A stretch of DNA of 49,628 nucleotides. Source: Escherichia phage JMPW1. Location of the stretch: sequence record NC_041874.1; one strand, written 5' to 3'. Shown piece after piece: positions 1,130 through 48,104 of this stretch; positions within the stretch are counted from its first letter, which is position 1; each line of letters begins with the position of its first letter. The notes under the pieces are model-generated. The model was not told the origin of the DNA, ran no database searches, and saw only the letters and a program-made list of their open reading frames with translations. Position numbers and translations under genes: made by a program.

Positions 1130-1324
1130 ATGGAAACGCAAATTGACGTAGTGGTTGTTCAGCGAGACTCAACTCATGAAAAGGGTCTGTTTAAGAAGGG
1201 AACGGAAATCACGATCGACCTTGAGGATATGGTTGCTTATCACTCTGGACTTACCTGGAACGTGGTGCGCGTAGGCAGCGACTATAAACTCAAAGGCTTT
1301 AACACTTACTTTGCAGAGGCTTAA
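1130..1324 (+). CDS. hypothetical early protein (64 aa)
   Basis: ORF directly downstream of promoter cassette 1056-1098; GAGAAAACGAAG leader. Confidence 0.55.
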   Translation: METQIDVVVVQRDSTHEKGLFKKGTEITIDLEDMVAYHSGLTWNVVRVGSDYKLKGFNTYFAEA

Positions 1325-1326
1325 TC

Positions 1327-1797
1327 ATGACAACCATTACCGTATTTCTGGCTAAAGATGAGATTGATGGCGAAATGTCATTCTTCGCATTTGAGCACAA
1401 AACCGGATCGCACTGGCATATGTATAGCCGCTACACGGTTATCGATATCAACTCATACCGCGCAGGCTCACTTACTGAAAAGCTGGGTTGCTTCATTGGA
1501 GCTATCAAGGTGAACAATGGCTGCGAGTGGGCAGATGAGCACGAAGAGCGCCGCATGTGCAATATGATTAACCCGGTCTATCTTGAGTCGTTCGAGCTTG
1601 ATGCTGATGTGAACATTAAGGTGAGAAAGTCTGGTGAGTTATTGCCAGGGATGCGTGTGCTGACTGGTTACTCGGGCCGTAAGGTGTGGCGCACCGTATC
1701 GAAGATTCGCCAGCGTTCTGCAACATGCTACAGCGTATTCTTTGAAGATGGCTGGAATATGATGTCCGGTAGTGAGGTGAAGTATCTCACCAAATAG
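1327..1797 (+). CDS. hypothetical early protein (156 aa)
   Basis: Starts 3 nt after upstream stop; its TAG stop is the TAG of the next palindrome. Confidence 0.6.
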   Translation: MTTITVFLAKDEIDGEMSFFAFEHKTGSHWHMYSRYTVIDINSYRAGSLTEKLGCFIGAIKVNNGCEWADEHEERRMCNMINPVYLESFELDADVNIKVRKSGELLPGMRVLTGYSGRKVWRTVSKIRQRSATCYSVFFEDGWNMMSGSEVKYLTK

Positions 1798-1837
1798 CAC
1801 GAATTGTTAAAACCGGATCGGGGTATCTTGCTATAGT
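1795..1837 (+). promoter_or_regulatory. palindrome-promoter cassette
   Basis: TAGCAcgaatTGTTA, 22 nt, TGcTATAGT 1832-1837; hairpin GGGGTA/TACCCC. Confidence 0.55.
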
Positions 1838-1875
1838 TACCCCATCGAAACGAGATACCAATCAGAGGAATAACC

Positions 1876-2106
1876 ATGTCAATCGTCAAGAACCAGCAAG
1901 CAATCGATTAAACCAATAACAACCGCTTTGCTATTTTCATCACATCGATAGGTCGCCGATTTGCAGTCAAAGCCGTTCCGGGTGGATACAAAACCTACAT
2001 GGAAGATAAAGGAAAGTGGGTGTGGTGCGAAAACCTTGCAAACTTCCTAGTCTGGAATGCAGACCTCCAGGGCTTTGATGATATCAGCACCTTAATTGAG
2101 GAATAA
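1876..2106 (+). pseudogene. early gene interrupted by in-frame TAA (codon 12, 1909-1911)
   Basis: Canonical cassette leader ACCAATCAGAGGAATAACC-ATG. After an 11-aa ORF the same frame stays open for 64 more codons (TNNNRFAIF...STLIEE) to TAA 2104-2106. Confidence 0.45.
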
Positions 2107-2112
2107 ATAATT

Positions 2113-2340
2113 ATGCCACGTTACAATAAACAGACTAAACTCACCCGCGTAAACGGGCACATGATTCCGGCTGAATCCACTCACTACGCAATGGGCGCAA
2201 AGCACGGAGTCTATTTCAAGTGGCGCGGTCAATGGAACTTCACGGCGGTTAGTAATTTCTACATGCGCGTCCCAGGTATTGACCCGCAGACGGTCGTAGA
2301 GGACTCAATCGGCAACAACAAGATCGAGGTGCTAAAATGA
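2113..2340 (+). CDS. hypothetical early protein (75 aa)
   Basis: ORF track; ATG 7 nt after preceding stop. Confidence 0.55.
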   Translation: MPRYNKQTKLTRVNGHMIPAESTHYAMGAKHGVYFKWRGQWNFTAVSNFYMRVPGIDPQTVVEDSIGNNKIEVLK

Positions 2341-2447
2341 ACTTCAATACAATTGCTTTATGGTCTGCCGTCTGGTTCTTCTGTATGGGTCATGTCATGG
2401 TTGGAATCGTAGTTATGCTGCTACTGTGTGCGGGAGCGTTCGAATGA
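2337..2447 (+). CDS. putative 36-aa single-pass membrane peptide
   Basis: ATGA start/stop overlap with upstream gene; MNFNTIALWSAVWFFCMGHVMVGIVVMLLLCAGAFE is almost entirely hydrophobic. Confidence 0.3.
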   Translation: MNFNTIALWSAVWFFCMGHVMVGIVVMLLLCAGAFE

Positions 2448-2617
2448 TGCGCATTCTGATTTGCATGATGGCGGCGGTCGCACTGGCTATCCTGGTAGTG
2501 TCCGGCTGCGGAGAGGCCAAAGAGCGATGCCATGAAACCGGAAACCAGGTTACTACTTTCGTGATGGTTGGCAACGTATTGCTACCAATCACATCAAATG
2601 AAATCACTTGCGAATAG
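2444..2617 (+). CDS. small putative lipoprotein (57 aa)
   Basis: ATGATG overlaps upstream TGA; signal peptide MMRILICMMAAVALAILVVSG-C with lipobox VSGC. The longer 2360 start in the ORF track is less likely. Confidence 0.45.
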   Translation: MMRILICMMAAVALAILVVSGCGEAKERCHETGNQVTTFVMVGNVLLPITSNEITCE

Positions 2618-2626
2618 GATGTTAAA

Positions 2627-2818
2627 ATGGCTGATTTTATGCACCAAATGATTGCAGTATTCAAAGGTAGTGATGACCAGGAGGTGAAAGAGTGCTTTAC
2701 TGTAGACAAGCCTTATAGCGCATCGCTAACCAGCTTCGGGAATATCTCATTGCTTGATGATAACGGCGACCCCTGGGTATTCGACGAAGACACTGATTGC
2801 TTCGAAATTAAAGAATAG
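2627..2818 (+). CDS. hypothetical acidic protein (63 aa)
   Basis: ORF track; D/E-rich; TAG stop lies inside next palindrome. Confidence 0.5.
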   Translation: MADFMHQMIAVFKGSDDQEVKECFTVDKPYSASLTSFGNISLLDDNGDPWVFDEDTDCFEIKE

Positions 2819-2858
2819 CACTTTTTGTTAAAACTCAATATCGGGGTTGCGCTATAGT
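2816..2858 (+). promoter_or_regulatory. palindrome-promoter cassette
   Basis: TAGCActtttTGTTA, 22 nt, TATAGT 2853-2858; hairpin GGGGTT/AACCCC. Confidence 0.55.
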
Positions 2859-2889
2859 AACCCCATCGACAACAAACGAGGACACTAAC

Positions 2890-3378
2890 ATGAAAATCAA
2901 ATTGCTTTGCACTGGCGGTTACAAGGGCTTTACTCGCGACCTGGAAGCGGATCCTATCGTGATTGATGCGGTGAAGTGTGATGATAGCCTCGGCGGCTAC
3001 CGCGTGAAGGTTGACGACCTGGTGAAAGCTGGCGTGTACGATCTGGGCTATGGACTTTCGGTTAGCCCGGTAGTTGGTCCGGCAGACTTCAACGAGAAGG
3101 ATGGAACGATGTTCTTCTTCGAATGGGAAGTCCAGGCAAATCCTAAGCCGCGCAAGGTTCGTCTTCTCAGTAATGGCGGCTACCCGATGCGTCCAGGTTA
3201 TGAGAATCGCACATTCCCGGTTATCGTTGACTTTGAAGAAATCACCGCACACTTAGCTTATATCAACGGTGAACAGCTTCATGCTGTTGGATTCGTGGGA
3301 TGTATGAATCAAGAGGCGCTATGCTTCTTCCATTGTAAAGCCGAGCCGTTCGATATTGAGTGCGAGTTAGTATACTAA
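2890..3378 (+). CDS. hypothetical protein with internal tandem duplication (162 aa)
   Basis: Follows cassette 2816-2858. Repeats KIKLLCTGGYKGF...PIVIDAV and KVRLLSNGGYPMRPGY...PVIVDFE. Confidence 0.6.
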   Translation: MKIKLLCTGGYKGFTRDLEADPIVIDAVKCDDSLGGYRVKVDDLVKAGVYDLGYGLSVSPVVGPADFNEKDGTMFFFEWEVQANPKPRKVRLLSNGGYPMRPGYENRTFPVIVDFEEITAHLAYINGEQLHAVGFVGCMNQEALCFFHCKAEPFDIECELVY

Positions 3379-3419
3379 GCACGAATTGTTAAAAGGGGAT
3401 TTGGCCTGACTGGTATAAT
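3377..3419 (+). promoter_or_regulatory. palindrome-promoter cassette
   Basis: AAGCAcgaatTGTTA, 22 nt, TGgTATAAT 3414-3419; hairpin GGGGATT/AATCCCC. Confidence 0.55.
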
Positions 3420-3449
3420 CCCCGCATAAACCACTAAGAGGAAAGCATC

Positions 3450-3956
3450 ATGTTAAAATTAGAAGACGTAAAATTCCCGATTAAATTTATCAGCCTAGGT
3501 TGCGGTGAAATTACATTCACCAGTGAAGATAAAGGCAAGTGGGACAATGATAAAATGTCTCAGCTTAAGTTGGATTGGTTTATCAATCGGCACAATGAAG
3601 TAAATCCTGAAAACTCAGCCAAGAAGGATTACCATTACATTATTAGTGGTAGTCAGGATGCGTACGAAAAGTATGATGGTTGGAAAATTGTTCGATCAAT
3701 CTTCCACCCCGCAAAGCCAGAAATTAAACCGATGTTACAATGCGCTCAGATCGAGAACATTCCATTGAGCGCGACGCTAAAAGGAGTGCAGCTTGATGAT
3801 AAATCCTGGCTTGAAATAACCGCCACGCCGAAAACTATTGAAGTGCACGACGATATCGTCACTCTTCTATTGCATTACGGCAGCTTTAAGCACAAAGCGG
3901 TATCAGGTGAAATCAGCATTAAGCGCGGAACACTTGTGCGCTATGAGGTGAAATAA
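3450..3956 (+). CDS. hypothetical early protein (168 aa)
   Basis: Follows cassette 3377-3419; AAGAGGAAAGCATC-ATG. Confidence 0.6.
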   Translation: MLKLEDVKFPIKFISLGCGEITFTSEDKGKWDNDKMSQLKLDWFINRHNEVNPENSAKKDYHYIISGSQDAYEKYDGWKIVRSIFHPAKPEIKPMLQCAQIENIPLSATLKGVQLDDKSWLEITATPKTIEVHDDIVTLLLHYGSFKHKAVSGEISIKRGTLVRYEVK

Positions 3957-4102: not shown

Positions 4103-4145
4103 TAGCACGAATTGCTAAACCTTCCGCAAGGCCATTTGATATAGT
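4103..4145 (+). promoter_or_regulatory. palindrome-promoter cassette
   Basis: TAGCAcgaatTGCTA, 22 nt, TGaTATAGT 4140-4145; hairpin AAGGCCA/TGGCCTT. Confidence 0.6.
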
Positions 4146-4185
4146 GGCCTTATTGAAGCAAGGCAACCAATCAGAGGAATCAGCT

Positions 4186-6169: not shown

Positions 6170-6212
6170 TAGCACGAATTGCTAAAACTTGCTCAAGGGC
6201 ATTTGATAGAAT
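6170..6212 (+). promoter_or_regulatory. palindrome-promoter cassette
   Basis: TAGCAcgaatTGCTA, 22 nt, TGaTAGAAT 6207-6212; hairpin AAGGGCAT/ATGCCCTT. Confidence 0.6.
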
Positions 6213-6252
6213 GCCCTTCGTTGAGTTAAGCAACCAATCAGAGGAATAAATC

Positions 6253-7545: not shown

Positions 7546-7585
7546 CACGAATTGCTAAAACGTCGGTGGGGTGACTTGATATAGT
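7543..7585 (+). promoter_or_regulatory. palindrome-promoter cassette
   Basis: TAGCAcgaatTGCTA, 22 nt, TGaTATAGT 7580-7585; imperfect hairpin GGGGTGAC/GTTACCTC. Confidence 0.6.
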
Positions 7586-7617
7586 TACCTCATCGACAAC
7601 GAAGAGAGAAAATCGAA

Positions 7618-48030: not shown

Positions 48031-48061
48031 GATTATTTCCTCGTTTGCTGCTGATGGGATG

Positions 48062-48104
48062 ACTATACCAGCCATCCCGGATGCGCGTTTAGCAAAAAGT
48101 GCTA
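48062..48104 (-). promoter_or_regulatory. palindrome-promoter cassette
   Basis: Minus strand: TAGCActtttTGCTA, 22 nt, TGgTATAGT (48067-48062); hairpin GGGATG/CATCCC. Confidence 0.6.

Follow-up and report, generated by a model that had tools for sequence, protein, structure and literature searches.

A probable natural ochre allele of the T1 ORF75-family early gene in the JMPW1-type Tunavirus lineage

The genome of Escherichia phage JMPW1 (NC_041874.1), whose 49,628 nucleotides are the window analysed here, contains an early reading frame that opens with normal signals and stops almost at once. Reading and translating the window placed the start codon at ATG 1876-1878, followed by the peptide MSIVKNQQAID and a TAA at 1909-1911, after which 64 further sense codons in the same frame (TNNNRF...STLIEE) run to a second TAA at 2104-2106, and a 6-nt spacer (2107-2112) separates this stop from the ATG of the next gene at 2113. 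These observations bear out the preliminary description of the locus, which had reported an in-frame TAA at codon 12 with an open continuation. Its estimate that 64 stop-free codons would arise by chance with a probability of about 5% was also arithmetically right ((61/64)^64 = 0.046), and the value computed with the genome's own base composition was about 3%. The question that this locus raises is whether the frame is a gene at all and, if so, whether the TAA inactivates it, is bypassed during translation, divides it into two products, or is an artefact of sequencing.

The reading frame and its ORF75-family relatives

Homology provides stronger evidence for a gene at this position than the probability of stop-free codons, judging from the match of the repaired 76-amino-acid product to a known phage protein family. 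When codon 12 was read as Ser, this protein matched phrog_11449 over positions 1-76 of 76 with E = 4.8e-50. Coliphage T1 has an annotated 231-nt CDS, 'Orf no. 75', in the syntenic slot, flanked by the left-end early genes and the DUF7274 gene, and the same gene order, with a repeat cassette upstream and the DUF7274 gene directly downstream, was found in T1, ISF002, Chapo and DELF2. By these comparisons the frame at 1876-2106 is the orthologue of T1 ORF75 (ST75, YP_003869 / AAP49925), phrog_11449, with which it shares its 231-nt length, its start context and its position in the early region. Most Tunavirus members of the family were 84-97% identical to the window's protein with codon 12 read as Ser. 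The downstream neighbour (2113..2340, + strand) encodes a 75-amino-acid DUF7274 protein (Pfam PF23939, E = 2.6e-41); the Shine-Dalgarno sequence of this gene, GAGGA at 2097-2101, is embedded in the 3' end of the interrupted frame and is intact.

In the window, the uninterrupted frame of about 76 codons that characterizes the family was not present because of the TAA at codon 12, which makes the locus, as read from its sequence, a nonsense allele or pseudogene in the ORF75 family rather than a functional member. It can be divided into a predicted translated stub (1876..1911, + strand), comprising the 11 codons of MSIVKNQQAID and the premature TAA, in which the mutated base is A1910 (C in the aligned intact relatives), and a gene remnant predicted to be untranslated (1912..2106, + strand), comprising codons 13-76 and the original TAA in a frame that is still open. 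The protein encoded by the remnant was 92-97% identical to its closest intact orthologues, and N45K was the sole amino acid change relative to the ISF002 protein. No paralogue or second copy of an ORF75-type gene was found within the window, whose first 3 kb showed no duplication elsewhere in it. The T1 RefSeq record (NC_005833.1, 1-2800) places the ORF75 orthologue inside an annotated 2.8-kb repeat_region (terminal redundancy); if it does belong to the terminal redundancy, it would be present twice in virion DNA.

A search of 5.8 billion proteins returned 44 clusters at 90% identity, which were 61-97% identical to the repaired query and included 40 of exactly 76 amino acids, three of 77-78 amino acids and one 53-amino-acid fragment. 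Only 16 clusters at 50% identity were recovered in an exhaustive profile search, indicating that the family is small and phage-restricted. It spans Tunavirus and also occurs in Warwickvirus, where the orthologue (SECphi27 gp21, atuna gp70; 68% identity) lies in the same early cluster but is followed by a 135-amino-acid gene. Nei-Gojobori estimates on 15 orthologous sequences gave a mean dN/dS of 0.09 over the 99 pairs with dS > 0.1, which places the family under strong purifying selection, and the window differed from Shfl1 by 16 synonymous changes and 1 non-synonymous change. An AlphaFold2 model built from the family alignment (pLDDT 92, pTM 0.81) was compact, with an alpha-beta4-alpha-beta topology in which a helix (residues 3-11) is followed by four strands, a second helix (55-61) and a last strand, so that the stop falls just past helix 1. 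Pfam has no family for the ORF75 product, and its matches in BFVD were uncharacterised phage proteins only. ORF75 is a true protein-coding gene, and the strong constraint on it extends to the part downstream of codon 12.

Two further kinds of sequence resembled part of this family. The proteins P0057 (1386 amino acids) and P0058 (809 amino acids) matched the 76-amino-acid profile in 9 and 11 separate stretches, respectively, with E about 1e-8 to 1e-9, and had only scattered sub-threshold matches in Pfam; these matches may come from a repetitive beta-hairpin motif that resembles the Gly-Lys-Trp region of the family. In SA30RD (OL960579.1, 687-950), as well as in IME18, UP30, AV106, phiL and XJA18, the ORF75 slot is occupied by a mosaic 87-amino-acid variant whose N-terminal two-thirds are unrelated but whose C-terminal approximately 20 residues (FLIWNGEFQGYDDISTLIEE) are those of the ORF75 family. 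This arrangement points to a C-terminus that is modular or, alternatively, to a recombination joint in the 3' end, where the Shine-Dalgarno sequence of the next gene lies.

Alignment to related phages, which the preliminary description had proposed as a check, was performed to examine codon 12. The intact relatives read GAT/GAC-TCA-ACC at this position where the window reads GAT-TAA-ACC. TCA was found in 12 genomes or UViGs (T1, ISF002, Shfl1, SH6, Sfin-3, pSf-2, ADB-2, DELF2, S2_02, Chapo and two IMG/VR UViGs), and Ser12 was nearly invariant across the family, the exceptions being one Ala and the Gln of Warwickvirus. The ancestral codon had been anticipated to be CAA, GAA or AAA, but the relatives instead carry TCA (Ser), which a single C>A transversion at 1910 converts to TAA. 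This TCA is among 23 codons of the ORF that a single substitution can turn into a stop, with 31 one-step nonsense changes among 684 possible single-base changes; the TCA>TAA event requires no special explanation. The proposal that a real gene has acquired a nonsense (ochre-type) mutation has thus held up, as the relatives have an intact 76-amino-acid orthologue with a sense codon 12 and a conserved downstream frame that is under purifying selection.

Upstream cassette and leader

The preliminary description had placed a canonical cassette and leader ahead of this gene. Both elements proved to be genuinely repeated, since TAGCACnnnTTGTTAAAA has 22 matches in the window at no more than 2 mismatches (0.19 expected by chance) and the leader ACCAATCAGAGGAAT has 7 (0.07 expected), but the cassette did not prove to be a canonical promoter. 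Its 5' part is the 21-nt direct repeat aaATAGCACgaaTTGTTAAAA (1792..1812, + strand), which overlaps the TAG stop (1795-1797) of the upstream 156-amino-acid gene. The stretch 1792-1812 exactly matches, in the orientation of transcription, the consensus aaATAGCACnnnTTGnTAAAA of the 21-nt intergenic direct repeat of Drexlerviridae. TLS is the phage for which this consensus was described, and it has also been noted in T1 and Rtp; it lies approximately 76 nt upstream of start codons (PMC11447400). In the window, TAGCAC at 1795 lies 81 nt upstream of ATG 1876.

Downstream of this repeat is an inverted repeat, GATcGGGGTA ... TACCCCATC (1816..1846, + strand; predicted fold -13.6 kcal/mol), and a -10-like TATAGT (1832-1837), preceded by TG at 1829-1830, is located within its loop and 3' arm. 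The distance from TTGTTA (1804-1809) to TATAGT is 22 nt, rather than the 16-18 nt of sigma-70 promoters, so the cassette is not a canonical sigma-70 promoter, and a consensus promoter scan did not call the site. It is possible that the TGn-extended -10 (1829-1837) confers promoter activity. The repeated leader (1857..1875, + strand) contains the Shine-Dalgarno sequence GAGGA (1865-1869), 6 nt before the ATG.

Most cassette copies have an inverted repeat a few bases 3' of the 21-nt repeat, with TATAGT or TATAAT in the loop and 3' arm; these inverted repeats were observed at 1075-1105, 1816-1846, 2840-2862, 4128-4152, 6195-6218, 7567-7600 and 48040-48070 (- strand), among others. The stem sequence varies among the copies while pairing is kept, with the pairs GGGATAAC/GTTATCCC (near 1080) and GGGGTT/AACCCC (near 2842), and, in other copies, GGGGTA/TACCCC, AAGGCCA/TGGCCTT, AAGGGCAT/ATGCCCTT and GGGATG/CATCCC. 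Because the stems differ in sequence and still pair, the inverted repeat suggests a selected DNA or RNA hairpin. The annotators of SA30RD labelled this hairpin a terminator, although it is not followed by a T-run.

Distribution of the TAA allele

JMPW1 is a T1-like siphovirus of the genus Tunavirus, family Drexlerviridae, and vB_EcoS_IME167 and phi2013 belong to the same species, Tunavirus JMPW1. Over the first 25 kb, IME167 and phi2013 were 100% identical to the window, Henu5_2 98.1% and JMPW2 95%. At the locus itself the window is not strictly identical to IME167, phi2013 and Henu5_2, as it carries a private synonymous change at 1902 (Ala9 GCA; GCC in all other sequences examined, TAA carriers included). 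Among 50,697 GenBank phage records, a 60-nt probe across the stop found a perfect match only in JMPW2 (two accessions), IME167, phi2013 and Henu5_2. The TAA-carrying phages were deposited by different groups and isolated on the hosts JM110, BL21(DE3), DH5a and BW25113. The source of JMPW1 and JMPW2 was 'contaminated experiment samples', and their Ion Torrent sequencing reached about 1,600-1,900x coverage (PMC4919409).

We extended this sample by means of the downstream neighbour, as the identical DUF7274 protein is recorded on at least 23 contigs in 32 index blocks. Among the 10 loci listed with this protein, all 9 that covered codon 12 had TAA. Two of these were IME167 and JMPW2 again, and the other seven were Logan or ENA contigs (SRR3470630, SRR3470635, SRR3470642, SRR12157854, ERZ23486431, ERZ23486263 and ERZ27292611); having been found through an identical neighbour protein, they sample one lineage and not independent mutational events. 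The allele was thus reproduced in independent data, comprising 4 GenBank phages and, among the loci listed, 7 further contigs, and is fixed in the JMPW1/JMPW2-type lineage (11 of 11 sampled members). A JGI metagenome scan for any allele of the codon-12 context gave 0 matches, IMG/VR returned known isolates only, and an exact look-up of the 35-amino-acid product of the remnant (described below) returned JMPW2 only, the remnant being rarely called by gene callers. The sequence downstream of the stop was essentially identical in all TAA carriers, so that decay of the remnant is not demonstrable and, set against the mutation rate, the allele is young.

A single laboratory mutant as the origin of the allele did not survive these comparisons, since the TAA is instead fixed in a lineage that occurs in more than one genome background. 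Up to 1872 JMPW2 resembles T1, with different upstream genes of the T1 ORF76/77 type, and from 1873 to at least 3603 differs from the window only at 1902 and 2551. Comparison of 1793-3603 of the window with JMPW2 therefore places a recombination junction between 1872 and 1902, to the right of which there are two differences over at least 1.7 kb. Since JMPW2 changes in this way from T1-like to near-identical with the window, the TAA allele sits on a block exchanged by recombination between genome backgrounds.

We conclude that the locus very probably carries a natural TCA>TAA null or near-null allele of a dispensable T1 ORF75-family early gene, fixed in one lineage. In the sequence of events that we propose, a C to A change at 1910 would have turned the Ser12 codon TCA into an ochre TAA in the JMPW1-type Tunavirus lineage. 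Ribosomes starting at ATG 1876 would then release an 11-residue peptide and the folded alpha/beta domain would not be made, and the allele, now fixed in a widespread lineage, has been carried by recombination into a second background, that of JMPW2.

Loss of ORF75 and alternative explanations

Loss of the gene accounts for these observations as ordinary biology, namely a classical ochre mutation, arisen naturally, in an accessory gene. As in classical ochre (UAA) mutants and in pseudogenised accessory genes of virulent phages, one base change converts a sense codon to UAA, the ORF is otherwise intact and was functional until recently, the phage is viable and the gene is non-essential; unlike the classical mutants, the window's allele was not made by experiment according to the records, and is fixed in a natural lineage, obtained mostly on laboratory hosts, and carried into JMPW2. 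The literature on pseudogenes in Drexlerviridae yielded nothing relevant. Ordinary K-12 and B strains support plaque formation and propagation of TAA carriers, so ORF75 is dispensable on these hosts. We infer that no functional full-length product is made and that the loss was neutral or nearly neutral. The genes downstream up to the cassette at 2816 share a transcription unit with ORF75, and any polar effect on these four or five genes is probably modest. The region left untranslated by the stop (1912-2112; 201 nt) is neither C-rich nor G-poor (C 42, G 45; best 78-nt window C/G = 1.3), so no strong Rho-dependent polarity is predicted.

An alternative that retains the null allele but not its neutrality is that the knockout was adaptive, with the ORF75 protein being sensed by a defence system or otherwise costly and the TAA being an escape allele that swept and spread by recombination. 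A precedent for selection of nonsense alleles in such genes is Bas11 Gp54 (Pfam PF25180), a small, non-essential early Drexlerviridae protein that triggers the CapRelSJ46 defence and whose spontaneous escape mutants include the premature stop W43* (PMC11578894). Gp54 resembles ORF75 in being a small early accessory protein of the same gene cluster in the same phage family, which makes adaptive loss of ORF75 conceivable by analogy. The two are nevertheless not homologous, as in SECphi27 the ORF75 orthologue is gp21 and the Gp54 homologue is gp19. The fixation of the TAA in 11 of 11 members, its transfer to JMPW2 and the presence of a Gp54-family gene two genes upstream all fit an adaptive loss, and the persistence of the allele in several backgrounds could mean that loss was favoured rather than neutral. 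However, T1, LeonhardEuler and SH2, for which K-12 and B strains served as hosts, also have intact alleles, and we know of no defence system that senses ORF75; we consider the adaptive explanation unlikely.

The Gp54-family gene of the window is a 64-amino-acid early gene at 1130-1324 (+ strand; PF25180 'Phage antiviral trigger protein Gp54', E = 5.3e-36). As this is a different gene, assignment of the ORF75 locus itself to the Gp54 (CapRel trigger) family was rejected, as was the 63-amino-acid gene at 2627-2818 as a Gp54 homologue, which is unrelated to SECphi27 gp19.

A second alternative is that the stop split the gene, with re-initiation at Met42 (ATG 1999) yielding a functional 35-amino-acid C-terminal fragment. 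The corresponding internal in-frame ORF (1999..2106, + strand) is called as a CDS in JMPW2 and Henu5_2 and is held in PHROGs as phrog_30837. Furthermore, the C-terminal 20-25 residues are the most conserved of the family and are common to the 87-amino-acid mosaic variant of the SA30RD/IME18 group, although the embedded Shine-Dalgarno sequence of the next gene also accounts for the conservation of the 3' end at the DNA level. Met42 is an ordinary internal residue in the intact family, its ATG lies 88 nt past the stop, and the only Shine-Dalgarno-like sequence, GGTGGA (1981-1986), is 13 nt upstream of this ATG and too far for the optimum. In the compact single-domain model, the fragment would also be missing over half of the fold, from helix 1 through strands 1 and 2 to most of strand 3. 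We therefore regard a functional fragment as improbable.

Programmed recoding, in which read-through, a suppressor tRNA, a frameshift or ribosomal bypass would yield the full-length 76-amino-acid protein, is less probable still. The 64 open codons after the stop and the persistence of the allele in a successful lineage would suit it, and an in-frame stop followed by a long open frame is also seen in Qbeta A1 read-through and the T4 gene 60 bypass. Those systems, however, require the extended product and conserve both the stop codon and its context, whereas the window's stop is lineage-specific, is an efficient UAA, and is without a stimulatory element or a take-off/landing pair. The TAA occurs only in the JMPW1/JMPW2-type lineage, the rest of the family having Ser, Ala or Gln. 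Within the window, TAA terminates 47 of 73 long ORFs, 13 of them as TAAA, so that UAA-A here is an ordinary terminator; ARAGORN found no tRNA gene; the RNA from 1840 to 2000 folds no better than shuffled sequence (z = +0.99); no slippery heptamer precedes the stop; and the next GAT that might serve as a landing codon (1947-1949) is out of frame and soon meets a stop. Beyond an amber suppressor (supE44 in DH5a and JM110), which does not read UAA, no suppressor is known in the recorded hosts. Stop-codon read-through, one of the explanations offered in the preliminary description, thus finds no support, given a stop that is not conserved in the family, a normal terminator, and the lack of a suppressor tRNA and of unusually stable structure. 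Some low-level read-through, or re-initiation at Met42, is possible within a near-null allele.

It is highly improbable that the TAA belongs to a region in decay or of low quality and is not a point knockout. Such a region was seen in Shigella phage vB_SsoS_008, where codon 12 is likewise a stop, in this case TGA, and codon 41 is another, but there the whole 1-kb region is scrambled and contains indels, including both neighbour genes and the cassette, whereas in the window every neighbouring gene is intact, no further frameshifts or stops were found in the remnant or its neighbours, and the remnant is one residue from the ISF002 protein. The vB_SsoS_008 record (MK335533.1, 675-905 and flanks) has the appearance of a poor assembly or a decaying early region. 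We did not accept its TGA as a sign of a codon-12 hotspot or signal, as the region is patchy and indel-ridden and TCA has two one-step routes to a stop.

The chance that the TAA is a sequencing or assembly error, with a sense codon 12 in reality, is likewise negligible: although TAA is one base from the intact allele of ISF002 and T1, and JMPW1 and JMPW2 were both Ion Torrent sequenced, the identical TAA in 4 phages from different groups and hosts and in contigs that represent at least 4 additional sequencing or assembly series, together with coverage of about 1,600x, excludes an artefact, and Ion Torrent errors are mostly homopolymer indels rather than substitutions.

With the TAA read as a natural null or near-null allele, the 230-nt 'hole' in the annotation of JMPW1-type genomes and the 35-amino-acid CDS of JMPW2 and Henu5_2 (phrog_30837) would both be remnants of ORF75, and the locus should be marked as a pseudogene. 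The allele is a convenient marker for the T1-like phage lineage of the JMPW1/JMPW2 type, which includes several isolates obtained on laboratory E. coli strains. It also amounts to a natural experiment in which a conserved early gene has proved dispensable on laboratory E. coli, and this points to an accessory role for ORF75, for example in host takeover or counter-defence.
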